Part shown: piece by piece, positions 8,181 through 43,700 of the stretch
Numbering within the stretch: position 1 is the first letter of the stretch
How the letters are laid out: each line of letters opens with the position of its first letter
DNA from: Eledone cirrhosa
Taxonomy: Eukaryota
Assembly: GCA_964016885.1 (NCBI GenBank)
Contig: OZ024742.1
Location: 85,064,001-85,128,000 of the forward strand
Direction of reading: 5' to 3'
DNA: 64,000 bases
Translations under genes and position numbers: made by a program
Notes under the pieces: model-generated
The model's input: the letters and a program-made list of their open reading frames with translations, nothing else
The model's database searches: none
Told to the model about the DNA's origin: nothing

Positions 8181-11100
8181 GGCGACCTACGTAGTAAATC
8201 GTATCATCGTGAGCTCAGCAAAGGTTTGTTATTTTCAGTTGTTTAAAATTGCCATTTATGGAAAATTTTTATTGTTAACTGTATATAAGTGCACATACAT
8301 TGATTTCTGAAAAGGACACTCAAAAAGATTGGGGCCTTGAGCCCAAAATTTAAACTTTTTATAATTATCAAACAAACATTTTTCTTTGAAAAATCATGGA
8401 TGACTCAGAGTCACTCCTTCCTCACAATCTAACACCTCACACCGACACCACCATTGTAAATATTGCTACGTTTGCCAACACTGGAAATGTAAGCAGTAGC
8501 AATATTTTAAATTTGTATCAGGCAGACGTTCATTTACCGCCATTACCAATGACTGCAGGTGTTAAAACCGCCACCCCCACCAGCACCACAGCGACGACAG
8601 AAACAAAAGAAGAAAAAATTAACTCGTGATATCGAAATGAATTCAACCAAAATGAACTCTTCCACACCGAACACCATTGACGCCACCACCACCACCACAA
8701 CTGAAACTAAAATTAATAATAGCAAAAATAACGATAACAACAACAGCAACAATGAAATTAAGAAAACTACCCTGAGTTTTGCTAGAGTAGCAAAAACGTG
8801 CGAAGCGATCCAGGTAACTCAAGAGGAATTAGAAGAGGCCAAAGGAATGGTAAAGAAAGATGGGTACAGGGTCAGCATCACCCCCCCCTAATAAAATGGA
8901 GAAACGTAGCCTATGCACCGTGTCTTATCGGACAATTAACATAAAATCGCGCCGAGTGGAACGGGCATCCGAGTCCCAAACCCAAAAGCTTTGGGACATG
9001 TGTGGGCAAAAAAAAACCCACATCAGACGTGGGCAGAAATATGGAACCGTGGACGTGTTATTTTAAACACCACAGGAGGCCAGAGAACATTCCATGGCCC
9101 CATTAAGAAGTGACGACTTCACACACGTCCCAAGCTATTGTGGCCAGAGACTTGTGAAGATCAGGGTGACCCACGTTCCACCGGCCATCGAAATTCCCTG
9201 GCTAGTGGCTGCCGTCCTCGCCGGCATTGAGGCCAACACCAAGATAATTGAAATAGCGAAAGAAAAGCAGGAGAACTGGTCCGGATCTAGGATGGAGCTC
9301 CTGGTCCAAGCGGACCATAAAAGCATTGAGGAGATCCCAGAGGTAATAGACCTCACTGACGGCAGCCACCTCACCGTAATCGTCGAGGACAGAAGACCCA
9401 GGTGTGTCGTTTGTGTTGAAGGAATCCACCTAAGGGCTTTCTGCCCTCAGGCTAAAAGTATGAGGCCACCTCTCTTACCCAACCATCAACACCACCAGCA
9501 GCAGAAATGGCAGCAACAACTGTAGCAGCAACAACAGAAGCAACTGTAACAGCAACAACCCCAGCAACAGTAGCAAAACCAACACCACCACCACCCAACG
9601 CGCCAGAACTAGCGCCAGCACCTACACCATCCACCACGCCACAACCCAAACCAACGCCTGTGGAGGATTTTCCACTCCCCGGCTTATCGCAACTGGAGAC
9701 AGATTGTCACGACGAGGAGTGGGAAACGGTAACAGGAAAAAAGAAAAAAAGAAACCAAATAAAAAAAATTCTCTTCCCTCCCCCTCCAAAAACAAAATAC
9801 AGATGGAAACAAATAAACTATCAAACAAAAAAGTTAGGACAGATATGCCACCATCCACACCAGCCTCACCAACTCCATCACCACAAACACCAACACCATC
9901 ACCATCATTAACCCCAACACCACCATCACCAACACCACAAAAGTCACCAAAAAGCGAAGCAGAAACAAACCCACAACAAACGCAAACAAAACAAAAGAAC
10001 CAAAACGATACACACTACACAGCATTAAATTTGAACAACAACCAATTATTACACTACATGCAAGACAACACCAGCATCACAGAAAAAGACTACACAGCAA
10101 CCCAAAAGTTCACACCACATCCACACATACAAATCGCTCGCATCACACAGAAAACGTACACGACATTAACACAAAAATTCCTCAAAAGCATCGGAGACTT
10201 CCGACAAACACTCTCCAGGAAGATTTATAAGGACACCCTTCCATAGGAGGCCACAAGCAGTGAAAAGTTTGGAAAACCATCCTTCCTCTACGAGAAGTTA
10301 TGTAAGTGGTCTTTCCCATCTTTTCCACTCCATTTCAACATGACCTCACTCAGAATAGGCAGCATAAATGCGCGTGGCTTGGGGCGTCATGGAAGCAGGG
10401 CCACCTGCTCAACGACCTCAGGTCACTAAACATAGATGTAATGGCCATCAGCGAGACCAGAATCTCCGAAGCACGGGCCTTCGCACCGATCTTCGGCGGC
10501 TACGATGTGTATCTCCCAGCCGTCCGGGATCGGGGGGGGGGGGATTTGCTGTGCTTTTTCGGAGAGGTTTGGATCTCGCCATACGGGCCATCTTTCTGGA
10601 CCCAGAAGGTAAGTTAGTATTGCTGGACGTGACAAGCGGAGAGCGGCAAACTTTCAGGCTAGTGGCCTTCTATGCCCCGACAGGAACAGGGCGGCCTAAT
10701 TTTTTCCGGCGTCTGGAGAACTTTCTTGGAACGTCCCGCTCTTTAGTGTTAGTGGGCACTGGAACGGGATCTTAGATGCACCCTGGGACTATGTGGGATT
10801 AGCGGATAGGGGAGGAGGGTGCAAGAGCCTCACCAACCTGCTCAGGCGTTTTGAACTGTCTGACAGGTACCGATTGGATTTCCCGCATGTGCCAATGTGG
10901 ACTTAAACAAATCGCATAGGGTCATCCAGATCATATCTCGATAGAGTATTTTGTAGAGAAATAGATAGTTCTAGCATAGGCTGTCCACAATTCAAGATAG
11001 TCAGCTACACGAACCACAAATTCGTGATCTGTGTGCTTGACTTAGATAGGCTTCATAGACGAGGACCCGGCTACCGGAAGCTAAACGCGTCCTTACCAGC

Positions 11101-11447
11101 GCGCAAGGCCTACAGAGCCTGGATTAGCGAACTAGTTAAGCAGGCGTTGACGGGGGCCTACCGTCAACAACAAGTGGTGGTTTGCTCTGAAAAGAGCAAT
11201 TAGAATAGAGTCCATTAGGTTTAGTAAGGCTTTAGCAATAGAGAAAAATAGAGCAGAGGGAGAATTAGTCCGAAAATTAGACGAGCCGATTAGCAAAGGC
11301 ATCGCGACCGACGTACTTGCGACGAAATTGGCCCTTGACCAATTCTTCAATGCAAGGCACAAAGGCTGCGTTGTCAGAGCTAGGATGCGTACTCCCAGAC
11401 ACAAGGGGAGGAAAGCCGTTCAATGGGCCCGAGTGGCGGAGGCGCAC
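8181..11447 (+). mobile_element. Tx1-type retrotransposon copy A (frameshifted ORF1 from ATG 8396; ORF2 from ATG 10340, 3'-truncated)
   Basis: ORF1 pieces are homologous to copy B ORF1 (LSFARVAK...EELEEAK, CTVSYRT, CVVCVEGIHLRAFC). 10302-11445 is nearly identical to 16135-17281. Several frameshifts and stops. Confidence 0.9.
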
Positions 11448-13779
11448 ATGCATCTTTATGTGATTTGACTTGTGATGTACTTATAATGACAGAATATATT
11501 GACAGAATCTTCCTTAGTATATGGGCAGTTCCCATTAGTACTATCTTTCATATTTCTCCTATATGCGGGTTTCTTGGGATTTGAGATAAGTAATTATTAG
11601 ACCCCCTAGGTATCATTCCGAGAGCGCCTACAACCATTGGCATCGTTTTAGTTCTCAATTTCCACATTTTTCCAAGTTCATCTCCAGGTCCTTATACTTG
11701 CTAAATTTTTCAAATGTTTTTATAGATACATTCTTGTCTATTGGAACGGACATATCAATTAGCAGGCATATCCTCTTTTTAAGTCCTTCAGTATTATATC
11801 AGGTCTATTTGCATCTATTTTTCGGTCTGTTTGGATGCTAAAGTTCCACAAGATTGAGATGTGATCTTTTTCAAGTACTGGAGACGGTTGATGCACCCAC
11901 CAATTCTTTTGATGGGGCAGGTCAAAATGCTTACACATTATCCAATGTATGTATTGTGCAGCTCTGGCGTGCCTGTTTAGGTATCCTGTTGGAGCTATAG
12001 GACTGCACATTGAAATTATATGATCAATGGTCTCTGGTTATTTTTTACATACACCGCATAATGGGTTATATCCATTTTTTATTATGTTGGCTTGGTAATT
12101 TTTGTTGGCAGACACTAATCTTGTGCTGATATAATTAGTCCTTGAGTCTTCGATTTCAGTCCAGAGGATGCCAACCACTGATGTGTTAAAGTTTTGTCAA
12201 CATCAGGATTGTTAGCTTTTTCTGGGTATTTTCCATACAGAGGCTTTTCTTGCCATTTCTTAACCAGTTTCTGTAGCAGTTCTTTCTTTGCAGTTACTTT
12301 TACCTGCTTTGCCTTTTATGTGTTTTTCATTTCAGCAGTAAATGGGACTTCTGTAATGTGTTGTCCGTTACTGTATCTTTGTGCATCTTTTGTAATGGAG
12401 TATGATCTTTTGATGCTTTCGTGTTTCAAAACGAGTTTGATCATCCAATCATGTGATTCTCTTAGATATGTATATAATCCAATTGTTGCAGTTTTCAACG
12501 CAATATCTAACTGGATTAACCCACGTCCTCCTTATTTCCTAGGGAGATATATTCCTTAGGGTGATGCATTCTGTGCATGGTTAAGAATTTTTAATATTTG
12601 TATCGAGCCTAAGGACTTCTGTGCTTGACCAGTTGATGACATTGTAACTGTAGGTTACTACAGGTATGGCAAGCGTGTTTATGGCATGGATCCTATTCCT
12701 TGCATTCAATTCCGTTCTTAAGATTGCTCTTACTCTGCGGTAACATTCCTTCCTTATTCCTTCCCTCATTGTCGAGTGCTTGATTCCGTCTCCTTCACAA
12801 ACACCTAGATATTGTAAGTTTCCTCTTGATCAGGTTCTCCTATCACATTCCCCCGATCAAGATTAATGTCTGAACTTTTCAGCAGCTTACCTCTGGTGAA
12901 CGTTGCTTTAGCGCATTTATCTAGTCCAAACTCCATTTTAATGTCATCACTGAACTGCTCCCCAGTGGATAATAGCCCTTGAGATTGTTCATCATTTTTT
13001 GCAAATAGTTTCAGGTCATCCATGTAGAACAAATTATTAATGGTTTTGCCATAGACTGTATATCAATGTTTTGTTTCATTGAGCATCTTACTTAATGGTA
13101 TAAGTGCGATGCAGAATAAAAGCGATGATAAAGAGTCACCCTGAAAAATTCCACAATTAATATTAACTTTTCCAGCTTGCAGTGATTTTTTTTCACTATT
13201 CAAAAGGACTGTGGTTTTCCATGTCGTCATACTGAATGACAGGAACCTCCTGACAACGGGAGATATTTTGAAAATCTCTAAACATTTTTCAATCCAACTG
13301 TGTGGCAAACTATCGAATGCTTTTTTGTAATCTATCCAAGCAATTGATAGATCTTTTTGTCTAATATGACAATCTTCCAATATCATTTTGTTAACCAAAA
13401 GCTGATCCTTACAGCCATATGAGCCTCGTTTACACCCTTTCTGATCATTGGGAAATAGGACATTTGTTATCAGGTGGTCATATGTATATTCAGTTAGGAC
13501 TGACGTTAACATGTTATACATTGTGGTCAAGCAAGTTATCGGTCTGTAATTTTTGGAATTGTTTGTCTCAGCATTCTTCGGATGTAGGAATGTAATGCCG
13601 TTAACTAGCCATTATGGTATATTTTCTGGCTCCTTAACTATTTCATTGTAAAGTTGGGCTAACAGCTCATGAGACTCTGTGAAGGCATTTATCCAAAAAT
13701 TTTGTATTTTGTCTTTTCCTGGGGATTTCCATTTGCTGGTTTCTCTTAGAGCCAAGCGCAACTGTTCAACTGTCATATT
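11445..13779 (-). mobile_element. R4/Dong-type retrotransposon, 5'-truncated and decayed (RT, CCHC, restriction-like endonuclease)
   Basis: Minus-strand motifs WIDYKKAFDS, GIFQGDSLS, FYMDDLKL, YLPRK-GGRGL, ILWNFSIQTDRKIDANRPDII (PD..D-type RLE). The 3' region matches 20019-20220. Confidence 0.88.
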
Positions 13780-13820
13780 TTCTTCTTCTTCTTCTTCTTC
13801 TTCTTATTATTATTATTATT
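13780..13820. repeat. (TTC)n-(TTA)n compound microsatellite
   Basis: Directly 5' of Tx1 copy B. Confidence 0.9.
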
Positions 13821-14122
13821 GAATGCCATGGTTGACGGAGGCTCGGCTCTGTAAGGTATAGTAATTTTTAACCGTTAAAACAATTGTAAATTGTTTAAAA
13901 CTTGAACCAAATTGTTGATAAAGACACACTCCTCCTCGTGAGAGGGGTCTTTCTGTCCGTTATTTGGCCCTTCGGGGTTAAATAACCAGTTATTGGGGTT
14001 TTGTACCCAAAATTTCATTTTAAACAAAAAAACAACATGGCTACGAAAAAAAAAAATTTCATACGTCACTCCCACTCATTCCGTCTTCTTCTTCCTCAAT
14101 CATCACTACAGCAGAGAGAAGA

Positions 14123-16138
14123 TTGTCTCTCTCCCTCCCTTCTTTAAATGTGTCTCTCTCCCTCCCTTCTCTTTCGCAAGTGACGAAAGAAAAGAAAAGT
14201 CTCGTGCAAAGCGTGCAAGGTTTCTCCACGACGACGACGACAGCGACGAAACAGGTGTGCGGGAAATACGAAAACCCAGTTCATTCGTCTGACGTCAGGA
14301 ATAATAGCAGTAGCAGCCGTAATAACAACAGCAACAGTGACAATGAAAACAACAGTAGCAGCCGCAACAGCATCACCAGCAGCATAAACAACAACAGCAT
14401 TAGCAACAGCAACACCAACAACAACCACAGCAACAGCGGCGGAGGCAGTAGTCGTAGTACCTGCAGCAACAACAAAAGTACCAGCAGCTCTGACGACAAC
14501 AACAACAGAAGAGAAAAACCAATCTCATTTGCAGGTATTGCGAAAAACTTGGAAACAATCCTCATAACAAATGAGGAATTAGAGGAAGCGAAGAAGATGG
14601 TGACAAAAAACGGACACCGAGCAATCTGCAAGGCAGCGGAAAACTTTTTCGAAACCCAAGAGCACTGTACGGTCACGTACCGTACAGTAAGTACAAAATC
14701 CAGTAGGGTGGAAAGAGCCACAGAGGCCCAAATACAAAAAGCCTTGGGATCTGTGTGGCAGCGGAAAACGCACATCACCCGAGGCAAACAATATGCCACC
14801 GTAGACGTACTTTTTGCCACACCCCAGGAGGCAAAGGCCCAATCAGTAGTGACCCTAAGGAGCGAGGAAATGGTGTTGGTGCCCTCCTACTGCGGGCAAA
14901 AAATTGTGAGGGTCAAACTGACCCACGTCCCCCCCGGAATGACCCCGTCTTGGCTGGCCGCGTCTGTCCTCGTCGGAATCGAGGACAAAACAACTGTACT
15001 ACAAGTACAGAAAAAAGTAAGAGAAGATTGGGTCGGCTCCTCCATTGAGATGCTAATCCAAACCAACCAGGAGTGCATCGAAGCTATCCCGGATGCGATA
15101 GACTTCGATAACGGCACTCAACTGCCCATAAGTGTTGAGGGCAAACGCCCGAAATGCTTTCGCTGTGGATCGAAGACTCACCTCAGGGCCTTCTGCAACG
15201 AGAAGACCCTGAGAAAGGAGAAAACCCCCCTCCTTCCGAATCCGGCTCCACGGCTACCAGCAACAGGACAAGCGGCAACCAGGAACGATAGGTCCGTGGC
15301 ACCCATACCCACTCCACGGAAATCAAAAACAGCAGCAGCAGTGGAAATATTAACAACAACAACAACAGCAATACCAAATGCAGCTGCAACAGAGACTCCA
15401 GTGCAAACATCACCAACAACAACAAGTGAAAGAGTGGAGCTGGTACCCCTCCCCGACCTCACAGAATCAGACATGGAGTGTGAGGTGGGAGAGGGATGGC
15501 AAAAGGTCGCAAGAAGACACAAACGCAGAAGCAGCGCATCGTCGCCTTTGAAAAGGGAGGAAAGAAATGAGAAAAGGGTAAAGTCTACTGCAAAGAGACC
15601 CACAGCAGCAACACCACCAACACCATCACCACCCACACCAGCACCACCATCACCACCGGCGACAACCCCACCGCCAACAACACCTTCAACACCACCCCCA
15701 CAAGCACCAACATCGCAAACACAACAACAAAACACACACACCCAGCAACAACGACAAGAAAATAGCAGAACCACACCCCACCCCCAGAAAAACAAATGCA
15801 CGGCAATAAACACACACAACAAGAAACTAATGACTTACATAATTGAACACACAGACATTTCACAACAGGACTACATAATACCAGCACCAATCAAAACGCC
15901 AACTAACATAAGACTGCTAAAAATAGCACAGAAACAATACACAAACATTAAAACGAAATTCCCCAACGCAGTTGGTGATTTCAGGGACCTAGGAGGAACC
16001 ATCAATCGAAGAGTATATTCAGACATTCTCTTAGAAGAGCCGACGACCAGCCGAAGGGACGATTCAATGGTCCCTTCACCAGACGATCAAGTGAAAAGGG
16101 ATGTAAAAACCATCCCTCCTCTACCAAAAGTACGGTAA
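14123..16138 (+). CDS. Tx1 ORF1p (gag-like nucleic-acid-binding protein with zinc knuckle)
   Basis: 671-aa open frame with CFRCGSKTHLRAFC knuckle and N/S-rich and P/T-rich low-complexity tracts. The real start is probably ATG 14037, one base out of frame across an A11 run. Confidence 0.85.
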   Translation: MSLSLPSLNVSLSLPSLSQVTKEKKSLVQSVQGFSTTTTTATKQVCGKYENPVHSSDVRNNSSSSRNNNSNSDNENNSSSRNSITSSINNNSISNSNTNNNHSNSGGGSSRSTCSNNKSTSSSDDNNNRREKPISFAGIAKNLETILITNEELEEAKKMVTKNGHRAICKAAENFFETQEHCTVTYRTVSTKSSRVERATEAQIQKALGSVWQRKTHITRGKQYATVDVLFATPQEAKAQSVVTLRSEEMVLVPSYCGQKIVRVKLTHVPPGMTPSWLAASVLVGIEDKTTVLQVQKKVREDWVGSSIEMLIQTNQECIEAIPDAIDFDNGTQLPISVEGKRPKCFRCGSKTHLRAFCNEKTLRKEKTPLLPNPAPRLPATGQAATRNDRSVAPIPTPRKSKTAAAVEILTTTTTAIPNAAATETPVQTSPTTTSERVELVPLPDLTESDMECEVGEGWQKVARRHKRRSSASSPLKREERNEKRVKSTAKRPTAATPPTPSPPTPAPPSPPATTPPPTTPSTPPPQAPTSQTQQQNTHTQQQRQENSRTTPHPQKNKCTAINTHNKKLMTYIIEHTDISQQDYIIPAPIKTPTNIRLLKIAQKQYTNIKTKFPNAVGDFRDLGGTINRRVYSDILLEEPTTSRRDDSMVPSPDDQVKRDVKTIPPLPKVR

Positions 16139-16173
16139 GTGGTCTTTCCCATCTTTTCCACTCTATTTTAAAC

Positions 16174-19100
16174 ATGACCTCACTCAGAATAGGCAGCATA
16201 AATGCGCGTGGCTTGGGGTCGTCATGGAAGCAGGGTCACCTGCTCAACGACCTCAGGTCACTAAACATAGATGTAGTGGCCATCAGCGAGACCAGAATCT
16301 CCGAAGCACGGGCCTTCGCACAGATCTTCGGCGGCTACGATGTATACGCATCTCCCAGCCGTCCTGGATCGGGTGGAGGAGTTGCTGTGCTTTTTCGGAG
16401 AGGTTTGGATCTCGCCATACGGGCCATCTTCCTGGACCCAGAGGGTAAGCTGGTGGTGCTGGACGTGACCAGCGGAGACGGGCAAGCTTTCAGGCTAGTG
16501 GCCGTCTATGCCCCGACAGGAGCAGGGCGGCCTGATTTCTTCCGGCGTCTGGAGACCTTTCTTGGAACGTCCCGCTCTTTAGTGTTAGTGGGCGACTGGA
16601 ACGGGATCTTAGATGCACGCTGGGACTGTGTGGGATTAGCGGATAGGGGTGGAGGGTGCAAGAGCCTCACCAACCTGCTCAGGCGTTTTGAACTGTCTGA
16701 CAGGTACCGATTGGATTTCCCGAATCTGCCAATGTGGACTTGGACAAACCGCATAGGGTCATCCAGATCATATCTAGATAGAGTATTTTGTAGGGAAATA
16801 GAAAGGTCTAGCATAGGCTGTCCACAATTCAAGATAGTCAGCTACACGGACCACAAATTTGTGACCTGTGCGCTTGACTTAGATAGGCTTCATAGACGAG
16901 GACCCGGCTACTGGAAGCTAAACGCGTCCTTACCAGCGCGCAAGGCCTACAGAGACCGGATTAGCGAACTAGTTAAGCGGGCGTTGACGGGGGCCATCGT
17001 CAACAACAAGTGGTGGTTTGCTCTGAAAAGAGCGATTAGAATAGAATCGATTAGGTTTAGTAAGGCTTTAGCAATAGAGAAAAATAGAGCAGAGGGAGAA
17101 CTAGTTAGAAAATTAGACGAGGCGCTTAGCAAAGGCATTGCGACCGACGTGCTTGCGGCGAAATTGGCCCTTGACCAATTCTTCAATGCAAAGCACGAAG
17201 GCTGCGTTGTCAGAGCTAGGGTGCGTGCTCTCAGACACGAGGGGACGAAAGCCGTTCAATGGGCCCGAGTGGCGGAGGCGCGTCGTGGCAACAAAGCCAC
17301 GATCCGGTCTTTGGTGGACCACGATGGGCGCATGCTACTCGATCCCGGGCAAATGTGTGAAGCTTTTCAGAGACACTTCGCTCAGCTGTTCGGGGGCAGC
17401 GGGGGGCCGGGTAGAGGGATGGACTTTAGTGTCTACCTCGACGGACTGCCGCGGCTCTCGGCCACTGAGGCGAGGTGTTGCGAAAAGCCGATAACAGCCG
17501 CTGAAGTACGGGAGGCAATGACTGGCTGCACAAGGGGTAAATCGCCTGGTTTGGATGGTCTGCCCTATGAACTTTACGTACAGATGCCAGACTTGTTCGG
17601 AGGCCTCTTGGCGGACGTCTACTGCAACTGGCAACAGAACGGGAGAATTCCCAGTTCTGTGAGCCGAGGAGCGGTGGCACTGCTGAGAAAGGATCCGAAC
17701 AAGGGGGATAACATAGACAATTTCCGGCCCATAACTCTGCTAAACACAGAGTTTAAGATTTTGGCCAAGGTGCTAGCAAAGAGGTTGGCGCTTGTCGTTG
17801 GTGGTCTGGTGGGAGAGGCGCAGACATGCGCCATTCCCGACAGATCCATCCACGACAACCTCCACCTCATGCGATACATCGTAGAGTGGGTAGCTAGGGA
17901 ACCTGGCACGGGTGGGTCCTTGATCAATTTAGATCAGTCGAAAGCTTTCGATAGGGTCGACCATCGTTACCTAGCGGCAGTCCTGAGGGCGGCTGGCTTT
18001 GGGCCCGTCTTCAGAGGCTGGATCGCTGCCATGCACAGCGACATCTGCTCTGTGGTGAGAGTGAACGGTCACCTGTCGGAACCGTTCAACATCATGCGCT
18101 CGGTCCGCCAAGGATGTCCCCTCTCGTCCCTCTTGTACGTATTGACTCTCGAGCCATTACTGCACAAACTGGAGACGTTGAGGGGAGTCCCGCGCGAACT
18201 AGGATGCGGAAGATCCGTGTCAGCATATGCGGACGATGTCACCGTAGTGGTGTCGAACGCCAAACACATCGAGGCGATCGGCACTACACTAAGAGAATAC
18301 GAAGCGGTGACAGGAGCAATGATCAACCAGGAAAAGTCAGTGGGACTGCAGCTCGGCACCTGGAGAGGCAGGTCCATGCCGTCCAACAGCGTCGTCGGGC
18401 GCTGGACGGACGGACCGGTTAAATTGCTAGGGGTCTGGTTCGGTCCGGACCTCCAGACGGACAAAAACTGGGACGAGGTGACGAGCAGGGTGGCTTCTCT
18501 CACCCAGAAATGGGCGGAGAGGAAGCTATCCCTGAAAGGTCGAGCGGAGGTGGCTAACGCGTACATCGCGTCTGTCATCTGCTACCGCCTAACCGTCGTA
18601 CCTTGTCCTAAGCCTCACCTGACTGCGCTGGAGCGTTTGCTCTTTCGCTTTTTGTGGAAGGGACGTGCTCCGATGGTCAGGCGGTCCATCTGTTGTCAAC
18701 ACCCGCTACGTGGAGGGCTGGGCATGCCGTGGCTGATGATGCGCAGGCACGCGCTCAGGCTACGACATCTCCACCTCTTCCTCGACGGTGATCAGGTGTG
18801 GTCGCCGTTTGCTAGACGCGTTTTTCCCCAGCTCGTTTCCTTGACGGAGCTGCAGTCCTGGGTCAAGCGAAGACCGAGAGGGAGCGCCTGGAGACTGGAA
18901 TGTCTTCAGGCGCTCACAGCCCTCGACCAATCGGGCAATGTGATCGGTGGAAACTCCACCTCGGCGTTCTATAGAGGATTAGTGGAGGGGAAGAGCGACG
19001 ACGTACTTGGGGAAACTCTAGGCGTCGACGAAAATCAACTAGCCAATCTCTTCGGAAGAACTTTCGGGCCAGGGCCTATGGACAACTTCCAGAAATCTCT

Positions 19101-19593
19101 GGCCTGGCAGTGCTACCGAGGAGCCTTGCCAGTTCGGGATAAACTCTACAGGCATGGAGGTGCCGTCAGCCGGGCATGTCCGAGATGTGCGCAGGGCGAC
19201 GAAACCGTCCTGCACGCACTCGTTCAGTGTCCGAAAATTGCTGACTTGTGGGTTTATGTCGAACACCTGCTGTCGCGTTTAGGACGGATCCAGCTATCAT
19301 CTGAGTCTATCGTGAGGATTGCCCCGCCCTCCTCCTTTAGCCGGGAAGGGCAGGCAGTTTTTATCTGTCTGGTGGCCATGGCGAAAGAGATAGTATGGTG
19401 GACACGTTTGAAAGGGCTGAAGACGAGCACTTACCTCTTCGGTGATGCTCTGATTGACTTTTTCAAATTTCATTTGAAAAGGAAAATCAGAGTAGAGAAG
19501 GAAGTGCTCTCTTCCCAGCATTTTGTTGAAAGATGGGTGAGAGAAGCAAGAATGGCCCGAGTGAATGGGCCGACTCTGAGTATATATCTGTAA
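16174..19593 (+). CDS. Tx1 ORF2p: APE endonuclease, reverse transcriptase and C-terminal zinc-binding domain
   Basis: 1139 aa intact. SINARGL, ISET, VYAP, GDWN, SYLDR, TDH (APE); KSPGLDG, RPITLLN, LDQSKAFDRV, VRQGCPLS, YADD (RT); CPRC...ETVLHALVQC. Confidence 0.95.
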   Translation: MTSLRIGSINARGLGSSWKQGHLLNDLRSLNIDVVAISETRISEARAFAQIFGGYDVYASPSRPGSGGGVAVLFRRGLDLAIRAIFLDPEGKLVVLDVTSGDGQAFRLVAVYAPTGAGRPDFFRRLETFLGTSRSLVLVGDWNGILDARWDCVGLADRGGGCKSLTNLLRRFELSDRYRLDFPNLPMWTWTNRIGSSRSYLDRVFCREIERSSIGCPQFKIVSYTDHKFVTCALDLDRLHRRGPGYWKLNASLPARKAYRDRISELVKRALTGAIVNNKWWFALKRAIRIESIRFSKALAIEKNRAEGELVRKLDEALSKGIATDVLAAKLALDQFFNAKHEGCVVRARVRALRHEGTKAVQWARVAEARRGNKATIRSLVDHDGRMLLDPGQMCEAFQRHFAQLFGGSGGPGRGMDFSVYLDGLPRLSATEARCCEKPITAAEVREAMTGCTRGKSPGLDGLPYELYVQMPDLFGGLLADVYCNWQQNGRIPSSVSRGAVALLRKDPNKGDNIDNFRPITLLNTEFKILAKVLAKRLALVVGGLVGEAQTCAIPDRSIHDNLHLMRYIVEWVAREPGTGGSLINLDQSKAFDRVDHRYLAAVLRAAGFGPVFRGWIAAMHSDICSVVRVNGHLSEPFNIMRSVRQGCPLSSLLYVLTLEPLLHKLETLRGVPRELGCGRSVSAYADDVTVVVSNAKHIEAIGTTLREYEAVTGAMINQEKSVGLQLGTWRGRSMPSNSVVGRWTDGPVKLLGVWFGPDLQTDKNWDEVTSRVASLTQKWAERKLSLKGRAEVANAYIASVICYRLTVVPCPKPHLTALERLLFRFLWKGRAPMVRRSICCQHPLRGGLGMPWLMMRRHALRLRHLHLFLDGDQVWSPFARRVFPQLVSLTELQSWVKRRPRGSAWRLECLQALTALDQSGNVIGGNSTSAFYRGLVEGKSDDVLGETLGVDENQLANLFGRTFGPGPMDNFQKSLAWQCYRGALPVRDKLYRHGGAVSRACPRCAQGDETVLHALVQCPKIADLWVYVEHLLSRLGRIQLSSESIVRIAPPSSFSREGQAVFICLVAMAKEIVWWTRLKGLKTSTYLFGDALIDFFKFHLKRKIRVEKEVLSSQHFVERWVREARMARVNGPTLSIYL

Positions 19594-19853
19594 ACTAAAG
19601 GTGGAAAACTGGGAGAGGGCACTTGTCTTGGTGGTCAGGGTCATTGTGGCTTTTTACTGGGCTTTCTCCACAAATGTCCCTCCGAAGTCTCCCCCCTATT
19701 GGGGAATTTTTCATTGTTATTTTCATTGTTATTTTTGTTACATCCTCTGTTTTTGTTTTTTTACACGCAGAAATGCCCATTTGTACCGTCCTGCATTGTC
19801 CTGCACTGTCCTTAATGTCTACTTTATGTAAACCCTTGTGGTTAATAAAGAAA

Positions 19854-19855
<2 letters not shown>

Positions 19856-19910
<55 letters not shown>
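19856..19910. repeat. (ATT)n microsatellite / Tx1 tail
   Basis: Follows ...AATAAAGAAATC directly. Confidence 0.9.
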
Positions 19911-19911
<1 letters not shown>

Positions 19912-20222
19912 AGTTTCATTAATCTTGCTTTATGTTCATACGAGTTATCACCAAGTCACAACCAATGACCTCAAGAGACAACAAGGTCCGCCATGTTCAA
20001 GAAAGAACATACATATTCACACATGCATTTTTAGTGTTTAGACTTGTGATGTACTTATATTGACAGAATCTTCCTTAGTATATGGGCAGTTCCCATTAGT
20101 ACTATCTTTTGTATTTCTCCTATACGCGGGTTTCCTGGGATTTGCGATATGTAATCATTAGACCCCTTAGTTATCATTCCCAGAGCGCCTACAACCACTG
20201 GTATTGTTTTAGTTCTCAAGAG
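19911..20222 (-). mobile_element. R4/Dong family 1, short 5'-truncated copy with intact 3' end
   Basis: 20019-20220 matches 11445-11660; (ATT)n on both sides. Confidence 0.8.
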
Positions 20223-20284: not shown

Positions 20285-21107
20285 TCCTTGAGTCTCAGTC
20301 ATTGATGTTAGTTAACTGGAAAGTTTGTTGGAATGAATATCAAGCCACTACCTGCAGCCTCAGATATTCATGACGTATCGGAGGGTTCTTGCTCTTCCCA
20401 GCAAGCATGCCTTTTGAAGCGTTCCCAAAAGCGTGAAGGGGCCGATTTTCTTTAACCATCCCTGGAACATTTTGGAGATAGTCCCCAGTGCGCCTATGAC
20501 AATCGGGATCACTTTGACTTCATGGCAGTCCAAATCCTTTTAACCTCCCACTTTAGGTCCTGGTATCGGTTAATTTTCTCCCTCTCCTTCTCTTGCACTC
20601 TCGTGTCGAATGGGCAGGCCACATCCACAATCAGGCACGATCTTTTTTCTTTGTCCACAACCACCAGGTCAGGTCTATTGTGTTCCAGTTTCTTGTCCGT
20701 CTGTATCCTAAAATCCCACAGCACCTTCACCTGATCGTTCTCTATCACCGCCTCTGGCTTATGCTCATACCACTTCTCAGAATGTGGTAAATTGTTTACT
20801 TTTCACAGGTGCCAGTGGATCACCCTGCCCATCACATCATGTCTCCAGCCCTTATAGTGGGTCTGGGCTAGGTGTTTACACTCGGATACAATGTGAGCCA
20901 CAGTCTCCTCTCTCTCTCCACAGATCCTGCACAGTGGGCTAGCCTCCTCCTTGTAAATATGGTGTTTCAACCACTTCGTTTTGAGGGCCTGCTCCTGCGC
21001 AGCCATTAACATTCCTTCTATAGCCTTTTTAAGGTCTCCTCTTTTCAACCAGTTCAATGGCCGTGGATCTCTAAATTCAGTTTTCTCAAAGAAGGTACTA
21101 TGAAGGG

Positions 21108-29454: not shown

Positions 29455-32400
29455 TCTTTAGGTCGTTTTGGAAGTCTCAACAATGCAGGTGGGTAATTCT
29501 CTGGGTAACAAGATCCGGTGCTGGAGAGAGAGATGTAAGTGAATGTAGAATGAGATGTATAGTGTGTAGAAGAACGTAGGAAAGAGCGTAACAAATAAAA
29601 GTAATAACACGAGATAGAGTTACCACTCTCACAATTAAAAGAACTATTTCAGCCGCCCACCTCTGTTTGACTGACCCCAGTTATTACTCAGTTATTCAAA
29701 ACAACGAACAGTAGAGGACACGTATCGATCCTATCCGACATATAAACGTAAACTCTCCCCCAGTTGATGGATGTGAATCCGAAATATAGGGACAATTAAA
29801 TCTCTCCCAATGTAATTCTATCTCGTGTTATTTTTATTTTTTATGCTTTTTCTTATGTTCTTCTACACATTATACATCTCATTCTACATTCACTTACATC
29901 TCTCTCTCCACTACCAGATCTTGTTACCCAGAGAATTACCCACCTGTATTGTTGAGGTTCCAAAACGCCCTAAGGAAAATATATCCTCTTATTCCACAAT
30001 GCTTCAAGCAAACTTCAATACTCTCTTATCCTGAGCCAGGAATTGTTTGCATCCGTAAGGGAACTGTTCAGACTGTCGGTGAAATGGGCCAATGTTGGCT
30101 GTCAAATTATTTTCCTGAAACGCTGCCTAAAAAAACGATGTCATCCCCACCACCATCAGGAACATCCACTCACCAGGATGCCTACATACACCAGCTTTTC
30201 AAAACCCCACTAGCCGCATACATCGCACGTGTATCAAACAGATCCTGAGATATCTCAACCGCCAATTGCACATCCATAAGCGGACACTCTCAGAGCGGAC
30301 ACATCGACTGTCAGTAACACCCGGCGACTTGCTCCTTAAAATCACTAAAACAATCGACCAGTGCTACCACTCCAGAGTCCAACACGAGAAAAAACGGCTC
30401 GAGCGTAAATATGAGTGGATCCTGTCTAAACTCCACAACGAGAACACCAACACTAACAAACAGACACACCAGAACCACGTGGAAAACAACAACGTAACAA
30501 CCGCCGCCGATGCATCCTCCAACACTGAGCCACACCTCAACGATGCGACGCACCTGGTCGCCGACCTAACCGGCACTCTCACGAGCGACGAACTGAAACG
30601 CCTACGCCTTGGACCCAAGTTCATCGTCTCACAACGACTCGACGACAGACTCAAACTCGACATCGAAGCCAACTTCTGTCGAGCCGAGCCGCCTACCAAC
30701 TTAAATAGGTGTCCGCCATCAACAACGCCACAGAAAATAACAGCGCCCACGCAAATCACGCTAAGTTCCCCCACATACCACACCGCCAACCCACTCCACC
30801 TCCACCCACCAACCACGAACTCGACACTAAACTCATCAGGTTAAAACACTCCATCTCGGATATTCTACACAAAAACACACACACACGCACAACACACAAC
30901 CTCACCAAATCCCAACTCACCTCTCTCTCCAACCTGAAATCGAAGAATCTTATCTACCTCCCCTCCGACAAGGGAAAAGAATTCTGCGTCATCAACAGAG
31001 AGGCCTACAACATTCTGTCCCTCCAACACCTTGCAATGACAACCTCTACTGCAAGGTCACTGGAATTACTCCCGCGCAGATAGAGGAGCACATCAACGCC
31101 GCCTGGGCGAACATCTGCGACCGGCGGAAGCTCCCGAAGAATATGAGATACAACCACATCACGAGGAATAGCAGACTACTCGCCTTCTAACACCTCGTGA
31201 AAACACACAAACAGGGACCCGACCTGACGATCAAACCCATTGTATTGACCGTGGAAGGACCGCTCTACAAAATGTTATGGCTCCTAGGCAGAATACTCAA
31301 ACCCATCCTAGACACAATGCCAGGATACGTAAACAGCCCCGTGGAGGTGTTGGAGCGCCTGCATCAAAAGGAGCCCGACACCAGAAAGGCTAACAGATAT
31401 GCCTTCAGCCTTGATGTAGTCGTTCTTTACACCTCGGTCCCGGCACTCCCGACCGTTGATATACTGATGGTACGCGTCCAATCTACCGACCTACACTGCT
31501 TCGGGCTCACCACCACTGACATCCATCAACTCCTATCCATCGTCGTTCACAACACATACTTCGGATTTCTCGCCCAAACATACCAACAAACTCGGGACTG
31601 CCCATGGACTCAAGCATGTCGAGTTTGCTAGCGATCTCATACATGGACAGCCACGAACGCAAGGCACTCAACACCTGCCGCCCCAACGACGTCGCCTTCT
31701 TCTCAAGGTACGTGGACGATATCCTCCTCCTCACATCTTCCCAGGAGATGGCGAACAGAATCTATGAGACGTTCAACAACACGGACGAGAATATTGATTA
31801 CAGTGTTGAACACCCCAGCGACCATGGGTCCCTTGCCCTCCTCGACCTCCGAATCAACATCACAGAACAGGGAGCTATATACACCAACTTCTACCGCAAG
31901 GCAGCCTGCAGGGACCTGTTCGTCCATTACAAGTCCGCCCTCCCTAACAGTGCTAAAATAAGGTACATCACGAACGAGATCATGCGAATTAAAAACAGAT
32001 GCACCGATCCCACGAGTGGTGTCACCCATACCAAGCGATTCCTCAAAGTTCTGGAGACGAACGGGTACCATGCCTCACTCACAAACAGAATAAGAGACAC
32101 CAGACGCAAGAGGCAGAGAAAGACCCAAGACAAGTGCTTCCTTAAAATACCACACCTGGTCGAAAATACCACCAAAGCTATCTGCAGGGGTATACGGAGG
32201 GAGGGCTTCGACATCCACCTGACCCACTCGGACCCCTCCCTGCGAAGATGCCTCTCCAGGAAACCCGGGAAATCGACTGACGCGTGCTCCCTCAGAAACT
32301 GCCCGATGCACCATACGAACTGTTGCTCACGCACATAAGTCGCGTATAAGGTAGAATGTAACAACTACTATATAGGTAGCACAATCCGGCCGCTACACAT

Positions 32401-40760: not shown

Positions 40761-43700
40761 GTACATATATATATGTATATTACATCTATGTATATATTTA
40801 TATATATGCATATAATATGTATCTGGTATGCTTAAAGCGAGAAAGAAAATTCGAATTTAATTTATATATATATTTGTATATACAATTGGAAATAGCTAGA
40901 TCACCCCAAAACGTTATTGTGTATAAACCTCTAGTATTTGGTTGTTTACGCAGTTTTATCCAGATTTCTTAAACTAACTAGAACCTACGACCACATTGTA
41001 ATCTGTACATTCTACCTATAAACACGGCACACAAACTTACACCCATATATATCGCAAAGGATTTTGCAAAACCTTTGTAAGTTTAAATTTGGCGCCGGCA
41101 AGGCAGCACTTCTTTGATAACAAAGTTACCACCAAATGAGCCGTAAGTACACAAATGTAATAAGAAAATATGTAATTAATTTTGCCAGTCTTGCTTTTAC
41201 CTCTTGGAAACTGAGTTAGATTTCGAGAATTAGTAACTTGACACTTTAGGGCCAGTGATCTTCTTCCACCCTATACTACTAGCAAGCCGTGTACCCCACC
41301 CATTCGATACCCCGTGCCAACGTGTGCTCACCATATGTTTTCCTTATGCCGGGCAGCCAACATCCGGTTACATATCATTGCAAGCATATCACAAATAATA
41401 AATCATATACCATTATCCCCAAATACCTGTCTGATGACAACATATGGATTAATTGTTACATAACGAATGTATGTCCTTTAAATGTACATAACAGGATGAT
41501 GTATTAAACTGTAGCTGTATGCTTGATACAGTATGTCTTCCTTTTCATAATATTGTAACTCTGTTTGATACCATATATGCACTACCACATGGTGCATATT
41601 TAGTGTAGTGCTTACGTCTCATTGCACGATAATCGGTCCATTGTTTGATAAACCAAAACTGATCACTTACAATTTCTAAGTCAATAATGCTTTCGAAATT
41701 ACCAGACTATTATTTCAAAGTGATGGAATTTGAAAGATATCGTCGGATATACACGTATTATCTACATTCCCCACTCTTTAGACATAATCTCAAGGTAATT
41801 GGAATCTGCTATGCTGCTAGGGTATCAATGAAGTATTTCATACAATTTCATCTCTTAATTAAGATGATGAAGTATTTATATTGAAACCAATCATTTAAGG
41901 TCATGCACATGGAAAATATGATAGAATATCATTTACTTTAGTATTTTTCATGGCAACTGTTGTGGCGGCGATGAAATATAATGCCAACTTGTGGCTTCAT
42001 TGTTTCTTACATATATCCATACGGATACACGTAATGTATCCGAGTATAGCCACTTCTTCTCACAAAAAATAACAAAACTAAAACACTACATTCATATATG
42101 CACGATTGTGTACAAATTTGATGGTTCTCCAATTGTGTCGGAGGATAATTCTAACTGTCTTCTATTAAATAGACCAATCAAAATCTATTTAATCATATGC
42201 CTTAGAATAGGAGTTTGAAATGTGATATAAATAGGAGCAGACTAATTCAATCCTGTTATAGTTTATGTAAATTATAACATACTATGTATAGCTATCAGGT
42301 AATATTTTCTTTGTGAATTTGAAAGTGATCAACCGACATCGGATGATACTTTTTATTATTCAGAATACATTGATGTCGAATTCTATTTTGTCTGATTGTG
42401 AAAAATAAGTGAGTGCGACCACCCCACTCATTAAATTCTCACAGTTCCTTTGCACAAGGATTTCGTGACCGAATCAGACCCTGAACATGATGACCAGTCC
42501 ATCTTTCGAGCGTGAGACTACACTGTTGAATGGGAAGGATTTGCCGCTTGAGGTGTAGAACTGAACGTCCACCCAATTGTAATTATCCGGGTTGATTTTT
42601 ACTAACGTCAAAGTTTCATAATCCTGTTAGTAGTTGCCGAACATTTCGATTACCAAAATGTTCGAAACATCACGGTGAAATTGTATACATATGCTAACAC
42701 ATCCCTTCCACGCTCTAGTTCGAGCACAATGCCGTTCAACAGTTCCAGCTTCCGCATTGATCGCTCGAGAGTCAGGTCTTACTGTAGTGACGAAAAGGTG
42801 TTTCTTGACTGACCGAATGCGTGATGTGAAATTATCACTATAAATGACCCTTTACATCGAAACAGAACCTAGGGGCGAGAAAAAATTGTCTTGAGAACAG
42901 TCACCACATACGGATGATCGACCATATAGAAATATTTCGATTGATCAGAGACCACCCGAAGCCTGGTTTTCTCCTTACCCTATTATTTGGCGTAGCGATT
43001 GAGGTAGATTATGTTATGTATAGGCCTGATATCGCTCTCCTTGCGCTTCTGTAACTAGATTTGTTACGACAAGCAGCAACGTCTTAACTATAACGTTGGC
43101 AACGATCTTAAATACTTTAGAAGTTATGGGCCACAATTTATTAAATATTTCCCACTATCTCGTCTATCCTCATCGTTAACTGATAAACGGAAATAAAGCA
43201 ACAATTTCAAAACATAATCTATAAATACATAATCAATCTAAACATAATTATGAATAAAATAATGCAAATGTTTTACTGTGAAATTATCGAACATTTCTAG
43301 AAACACTATATTTATCATAAAGCTTAAATCCATAAATCGCTATTATTCATAATTTAATCAAATTTTGAGGATATAATTCTGCCTCGAAGCAGGAACAATG
43401 CTATACTATTATTTCCCTATTATAATATGGAGTCTAATTTCGGAGTTGGTATTTAAATATTCTTAAAAAATGAATAATGATGTATCAGGTTTGTGTTTGA
43501 GAAATGTTGAGTAAATCACGGACACGGGGAATGTTTTGATAAAATTCTTTTTTGTCATCAGTTAAGCGGGCCGCAAGCACACATAAGAACATACTGATCA
43601 ATAAATCATTATTTATAAATGCACGCTTGGGTAGTGTTATTGAACAAATCTTTTGTTGCCAAAATGTCAGTGTTATAATTTTCAGGTTTATAATACACCT

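Follow-up and report, generated by a model that had tools for sequence, protein, structure and literature searches.

A covarying long-range RNA helix predicted around ORF2 of Tx1-type retrotransposons, and a possible splice switch at the ORF1 stop

LINE particles need more of the protein of open reading frame 1 (ORF1p) than of ORF2p, and LINE proteins show cis preference. How does a bicistronic RNA of these long interspersed nuclear elements provide high ORF1p and low ORF2p, and how does it persist when a stop codon lies kilobases upstream of its 3′ end? The question is long-standing and few elements have been studied. In SART1 and mammalian L1, whose LINE RNAs are bicistronic, ORF2 starts at an AUG of its own close to the ORF1 stop. 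In the literature excerpts to which our statements on cited papers are confined, the structure described for SART1 is of a local kind only, and the loop mentioned for L1 is hypothetical (PMC5972666, PMC10275272). In tombusviruses, the proximal and distal readthrough elements (PRTE-DRTE) pair across ~3.5 kb, joining RNA downstream of the first stop to the 3′ region in a switch-like, polymerase-linked manner (PMC3234231). In Ty1/copia elements, a conserved splice donor, U1 and a spliced GAG-only RNA set a precedent for dividing one transcript in two (PMC5580714). Here we compare with these systems a stretch of 64,000 nucleotides (nt) from Eledone cirrhosa (the window; contig OZ024742.1, positions 85,064,001 to 85,128,000, forward strand), which carries a full-length Tx1/L1-type non-LTR (long terminal repeat) retrotransposon of subfamily 1a at window positions 13821–19855 (+), flanked on both sides by (ATT)n.

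A predicted helix between the two boundaries of ORF2

The original prediction, made from this DNA alone, paired the inter-ORF spacer with the start of the 3′ untranslated region (3′UTR), and the two segments are as it described them: 16137–16161 and 19601–19624 form 22 pairs at −29.7 kcal/mol. It also noted that the wobbles work on the sense RNA only; the antisense pairing is weaker (−23.2 kcal/mol), as it is in 7/7 subfamily representatives. When wider stretches are considered, the best duplex (−35.1 kcal/mol) joins a 5′ arm at 16134–16162 (+), made of the ORF1 stop and the spacer, to a 3′ arm at 19600–19627 (+), at the 3′UTR start, with a terminal anti-donor stretch. The arms are predicted to close a 3.4-kb loop around ORF2. 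Counted from the first base of the ORF2 stop, the duplex begins 9 nt downstream, and 11 nt separate its other end from the ORF2 ATG, so that only the ORF1 stop is covered in the window copy; the extension once suggested to 16170 and 19591, over both TAA stops, falls outside it. At 19626 the window copy carries T instead of the C of most copies, and its helix is weakened for that reason (−35.1 versus −40.7 kcal/mol). When all 50-nt tiles of the 64 kb are ranked (step 10, + strand), the spacer finds its best partner at the 3′UTR start, with −34.9 kcal/mol versus −31.7 for the runner-up. This lead of ~3 kcal/mol is modest when taken alone, and the case beyond chance rests on relatives.

What do the relatives show? 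From a search of the 3.0-Gb genome, 112 stretches were sampled, picked to reach diverged families. In 7/7 subfamily representatives, whose ORF2 sequences share 70–97% DNA identity, the best partner of the spacer among 356–367 windows of its own element is the 50-nt stretch that directly follows the ORF2 stop, and dinucleotide shuffles equal the value of the helix in 0–9/500. Cognate pairings lie at −40 to −47 kcal/mol, whereas cross-pairings of the two main clades lie at −23 to −37. The inner helix is made of unrelated sequences in families 1, 2 and 6 and in clade B, which amounts to replacement of the whole helix; the typical arms of family 6 form a 12-bp helix. Within clade B, four pairs have changed on both sides and three on one side, 28 are invariant and 14 cells are non-pairing; the alignment of clade A is unreliable owing to indels. 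Among the parsed copies with both ends, 62/64 lie at or below −30 kcal/mol and the two misses lack the 3′UTR start, in a count of copies that are not independent and from which eight more were lost in parsing. Complementarity has been kept with compensatory changes, and the relatives support the idea of a conserved, covarying helix around a looped-out ORF2 well past what a single copy could offer. At the level of sequence comparison, we regard the long-range complementarity as genuine and confirmed.

Folding of the whole 3.8-kb region places the helix in the minimum-energy structure of 7/8 elements. Once the cost of opening local structure is paid, its predicted net stability is small (−16.6 to +2.2 kcal/mol, 9 rows), so that the helix appears marginal and switch-like, in line with the switch first suggested. 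For the companion idea, cis preference through the helix, we found no support, because ORF2p would be completed next to the 3′UTR anyway. A proposed local competitor of the spacer at 16089–16103 survives in part: in the window copy this stretch belongs to its own upstream hairpin, and in subfamily 1b its counterpart does pair with the spacer. Similar to 1b is copy A, a decayed, 3′-truncated relative at 8181–11445 (+) with the same spacer and a donor-like motif at 10302, in which the motif placed at 10260 begins at 10259; copy A ends near 11445 and hence has no 3′ arm. The distance from the ORF1 stop to the ORF2 ATG varies from 32 to 51 nt with frames 0, 1 and 2 all present (10 rows), and young 1a copies have both 37 and 38 nt. 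A hairpin is also predicted in the last 20–30 codons of ORF1, at ~16054–16080 here and upstream of the ORF1 stop in L074, L083 and L096, in both clades; a reading of the hairpins by eye showed no shared UGGGA, the motif that termination upstream ribosome-binding sites (TURBS) have ~40–80 nt upstream of the stop. The ORF2 AUG can sit in a mini-hairpin of 3–4 bp (16168–16177 and equivalents; CCA..UGG, or UCA..UGA in 1b), which may be Kozak context only. A search of 13700–20000 against Rfam gave no match at gathering score and three weak microRNA matches far below threshold.

Does the helix extend beyond this genome? A genome scan found tandem arrays of elements with 41% protein identity in a second host. 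In the main family of that host, the 5′ arm comprises the last 45 nt of ORF1 together with the spacer, and its partner is the 3′-terminal 42 nt of ORF2 with the stop codon; with a 55-nt window this pairing is ranked first in 11/14 distinct rows and among the top three in 14/14, and with a 75-nt window it is first in 3/8, shuffles matching it in 0–18/200. One pair of this helix is G-C in 31 copies, A-U in four and mismatched in two. In L228, a further family of the second host with 61% DNA identity to the main one, the ORF1 stop, the AUG and the first codons pair with the last 38 nt of ORF2 at −43.3 kcal/mol, versus −32.2 for the next site and with 0/1000 shuffles reaching it, a result found in one of seven windows tried. 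A quick tree joins the families of both hosts in one clade (Shimodaira–Hasegawa-like approximate likelihood ratio test, SH-aLRT, 100). The helices of the second host have the same topology in registers shifted relative to those of this genome, and unrelated arm sequences occupy the same two junctions in three lineages. Outside the clade, the spacer pairs best with the 3′UTR start in 0/21 elements evaluated (28 tried, 71 loci). In a looser test with three sliding windows, 3/21 of these elements ranked first once, where ~2 are expected by chance, and their helices are gappy. In L104, L106 and L234, which form one sister clade (27–28% amino-acid identity), a window at the ORF1 end ranked first against the ORF2-stop region in the looser test; the helices are gappy and the number of such cases is near chance. 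A search of viral contigs gave no relative. The second-host record, which contains L196–L233, L236 and L238, is labelled as a bacterial metagenome-assembled genome (MAG) and consists largely of tandem arrays of intact Tx1-type elements; it likely represents eukaryotic host DNA within a reference set of prokaryote genomes.

Splice-like motifs and their possible relation to the helix

Two features absent from the original prediction, the donor-like motif over the ORF1 stop and the 3′UTR acceptors, make splicing the likelier target of the helix. The donor-like GTAAGT at 16135–16140 (+) lies over the ORF1 stop and is kept across families and reading phases. For example, GGTAAGT stands at the ORF1 stop of families 1–5 in three layouts of stop and phase (CGG TAA; GGT AAG TGA; GGT AAG TAA), and every family of this genome has a donor-like G/GTAA(GT) at this place (the slash marks the putative splice position), which in family 6 reads CAG/GTAAT. 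Similarly, the main second-host family has AAG/GTAAGT in non-coding sequence 2 nt after the ORF1 stop in 72/72 occurrences, some counted twice in overlapping loci. The ORF1 stop is always under the helix, and the first bases of the donor-like motif are paired in all representatives shown.

On the downstream side, a pyrimidine tract followed by CAG at 19748–19770 (+) is a candidate 3′ splice acceptor; joined to the donor-like motif, it would yield ORF1 with 19 further codons and a stop at 19829–19831. This acceptor also occurs in 1b and 6 and is absent from 2, 4 and 5b; the phase-2 families (1a, 1b and 6) share it at +161 to +180 after the ORF2 stop. In 7/7 phase-1 representatives, ORF1 would run on for 1–4 codons if spliced to the terminal TAG of ORF2, a regularity partly confounded by pairing constraints. 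In the main second-host family, a donor follows the ORF2 stop and the 3′UTR has an acceptor whose YAG (Y, pyrimidine) is found in 49/49 occurrences with eight variants of the pyrimidine tract, and L228 has a 3′UTR donor at +43 with strong acceptors from +187. An intron-like unit of donor, pyrimidine tract and YAG is retained by genomic copies of L203 (3′UTR +17 to +267) and L228 (+43 to +187).

We propose, with a probability of roughly one half, that the helix occludes a splice donor located at the end of ORF1, over its stop, and thereby divides the RNA between an unspliced bicistronic form and a spliced ORF1-only mRNA. The sequence itself shows the grounds of this model: covarying arms, a donor-like motif where ORF1 stops, and acceptor-like sites at the ORF2 stop or beyond it. 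The helix is predicted to form once the end of ORF2 has been transcribed, just ahead of the appearance of the acceptor, and to pair the donor bases in competition with U1 small nuclear RNA; since the acceptor is made only after the 3′ arm, the arm could displace U1 first and the RNA would be kept whole. Clasped RNA would be exported whole as the template for ORF2 translation and for transposition, and unclasped RNA would be spliced to a short ORF1 message, giving an excess of ORF1p over ORF2p. If so, the helix sets the amount of full-length RNA that is kept. A broader proposal, which we advance tentatively and think somewhat short of even odds, is that an entire clade of Tx1 elements handles ORF2 as an intron under regulation and that a clasp between the ORF1 and ORF2 stops, dependent on full-length RNA, decides splicing, a subgenomic strategy like that of copia elements and retroviruses, gated by RNA structure alone.

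A number of observations weigh against these proposals. Two old family 6 copies reach −30 and −34 kcal/mol and are not top-ranked, and shuffles equal them in 31 and 10 of 300; the helix does not form in the whole-region fold of L083 (1/8), and a second variable position in the second-host helix shows no covariation. The family 6 donor lacks the G at +5, and that of L228 is weak (CT/GTAAT). The tract before the ORF2-stop acceptor is poor in T (5–7 of 20), family 2 has CAC at the acceptor site of 1a, and families 4 and 5b have neither a YAG in the U-rich 3′UTR nor another good acceptor; a single 3′UTR acceptor for all families is rejected, no position being common to all of the aligned 3′UTRs. 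Searches for spliced genomic copies, with patterns that miss some exon starts, returned 0 and 2 (both local lesions) versus 1205 unspliced in one group and 0 versus 983 in a second. This absence is expected if RNA lacking ORF2 is rarely mobilised, yet it gives the proposal no support. Likewise, no ORF1 homologue with a spliced tail was found at E ≤ 1e-5 among the 8000 candidates scored.

Alternative readings

Could the helix act instead in the cytoplasm, on termination and reinitiation? By bringing the ORF1 stop and the ORF2 AUG near the ORF2 stop, it would throttle or license the ORF2 start only on RNAs with an intact 3′ end. In all families it lies over the ORF1 stop and either ends 2–11 nt before the ORF2 AUG or covers it, and a ribosome covering 12 nt past the stop would leave −14 to −19 kcal/mol of helix (−29 in family 6). 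Precedents exist in SART1, where structure downstream of the stop-start site is needed (looping has been mooted for L1; PMC5972666), and in the tombusvirus polymerase, whose synthesis depends on the 3.5-kb pairing (PMC3234231). The donor and acceptor motifs are left unexplained, however, and the placement of the helix relative to the AUG differs widely among families; we hold this reading to be a serious competitor of the splice switch, if a less likely one. More doubtful is a fold-back against nonsense-mediated decay (NMD) in which the poly(A) end is brought near the ORF1 stop. The linear distance from that stop to AATAAA is 3.6–4.0 kb, the 3′ arm lies within ~270 nt of AATAAA, and NMD has been suppressed in human cells with engineered fold-backs (PMC2689704). 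Those constructs paired ~42–50 nt past the stop and beside the poly(A) signal, whereas here the arm overlaps the stop; the second-host arm is ~450 nt from AATAAA, 21 other bicistronic relatives do without the helix, and the splice motifs again go unexplained.

Slightly less probable again is a role in assembling the ribonucleoprotein (RNP) or in reverse transcription, through compaction, cis preference or 3′-end protection, the splice-like motifs being non-splicing U1 sites or incidental. U1 binding without splicing does suppress premature 3′ end formation in EVD (PMC5580714), and such a role fits the absence of spliced genomic copies; but nothing links it to the ORF1 stop, and the ORF2 of 1a contains no A(A/T)TAAA that would need suppression. 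A chance origin of the complementarity, between a spacer rich in pyrimidines and a 3′UTR start rich in purines, would accommodate the narrow lead of the window pairing, the rank of the old family 6 copies and the strong competitors in GC-rich windows of the second host. It is already largely refuted by the shuffles, the gap between cognate and cross-clade pairings, the compensatory pairs and the unrelated arms at the same junctions of three lineages, and we consider it highly improbable. Three further candidates were rejected. Readthrough and frameshifting, both outputs of the nearest viral precedent (PMC3234231), are excluded by the free frame between ORF1 and ORF2. A 52–59-nt intron fusing ORF1 to ORF2 would be in frame in 1a, and the first YAG of family 2 is out of frame; such RNA should be mobilised in cis, yet 0 of 1205 copies are intronless. 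A-to-I recoding of the paired stop finds no A>G at 16137–16138 at 1% in DNA contigs, and the frames differ. The readings to which a likelihood is given above are not mutually exclusive; the splice switch, at the even odds given above, is the one that uses all of the observed parts.

The element and its place among known systems

The element is 98–99% identical to other copies across ~6.1 kb. Its ORF1 region (14037–16138, +) encodes 698 amino acids in intact relatives, with a CX2CX4HX4C (CCHC) knuckle read from the translations; in the window copy the frame is lost at an A-run near the start and 14597–16138 is open. ORF1 gave no Pfam family above its cut-off. ORF2 (16174–19593, +; 1139 amino acids) contains endonuclease (PF03372), reverse transcriptase (RT; PF00078) and C-terminal zinc-finger (zf-RVT, PF13966) domains. 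This domain set, and an upstream ORF1 with a CCHC knuckle, are traits of L1/Tx1 elements. AATAAA, present in 9/9 aligned 3′UTRs, is followed by an (ATT)n tail (19844–19910, +), and (ATT)n lies directly upstream of 44/44 full-length 5′ ends (a few counted twice in overlapping loci), the kind of target preference seen in the Tx1 clade. Microsatellite targeting and an ORF1 CCHC knuckle are Tx1 clade traits (PMC4494074, PMC5203782), and by these two features the element fits the clade; its relatives in our tree are all unnamed. The family is young and very large, the best 150 of 35,533 candidates being 99–100% identical over the first 200 amino acids, and its copies are often arranged head-to-tail in arrays. 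At least 1205 and 983 copies in two groups have an intact junction, so the feature belongs to active elements.

Other parts of the sequence deserve mention. A hairpin motif of C-rich, TAT and G-rich segments at 19690–19710 of the 3′UTR is kept in 9/9 aligned families, and it and the terminal AATAAA are candidates for 3′-end recognition. Families 1a and 4 have further donor-like motifs ~30 nt from the 5′ terminus of the element (near 13850, and in the 5′UTR of L083). Subfamilies with differing ORF1 ends have common sequence from about the donor onward (window 16134; L048–L050, L061), and loose sequence ends switch exactly at 16134, which suggests that ORF1 has been swapped near the ORF1–ORF2 junction. 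Elsewhere in the window are a fragment of the lineage that is older and 65% identical (42467–42827, −), a weak RT fragment (31604–32338, +) and other LINE-like remnants beside the two copies (11450–13760 and 20300–21100).

How does this locus compare with what has been described? Our full-text literature search, whose coverage leaves out most subscription journals and Repbase Reports, returned no Tx1/L1 junction-to-3′UTR helix and no subgenomic RNA that skips ORF2. The Tx1-clade elements Kibi, targeting (TC)n, and Koshi, targeting (TTC)n, likewise have two ORFs, an ORF2 with apurinic/apyrimidinic-like endonuclease (APE), RT and zinc finger, a CCHC motif in ORF1 and a strict microsatellite target (PMC4494074); the target here is (ATT)n, and our searches met with no description of a junction-to-3′UTR helix or of splice sites flanking ORF2 in such elements. 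SART1 has an overlapping stop-start and local downstream structure, with no distal partner described in the excerpts (PMC5972666, PMC10275272). The engineered NMD fold-backs, in which a long 3′UTR is looped out when RNA just past the stop pairs with the 3′ region, resemble the present arrangement and are synthetic (PMC2689704). The tombusvirus pairing drives readthrough, which is excluded here. Arabidopsis EVD has a conserved donor at the end of its structural gene and, as we suggest for the present element, a short structural mRNA beside a full-length one; EVD is an LTR element in which a short intron and premature termination have been shown experimentally (PMC5580714), whereas here, in a non-LTR element, the whole of ORF2 would serve as the intron, gated by a long-range helix. 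A clade-wide, covarying helix at both ORF2 boundaries is open to direct tests with disruptive and compensatory mutants, and it would bring a plant-virus-style long-range switch, possibly with subgenomic splicing, into the non-LTR retrotransposons. We conclude that the feature is real, with a function that we propose as a model; it is kin to known long-range RNA switches and apparently new in its form.

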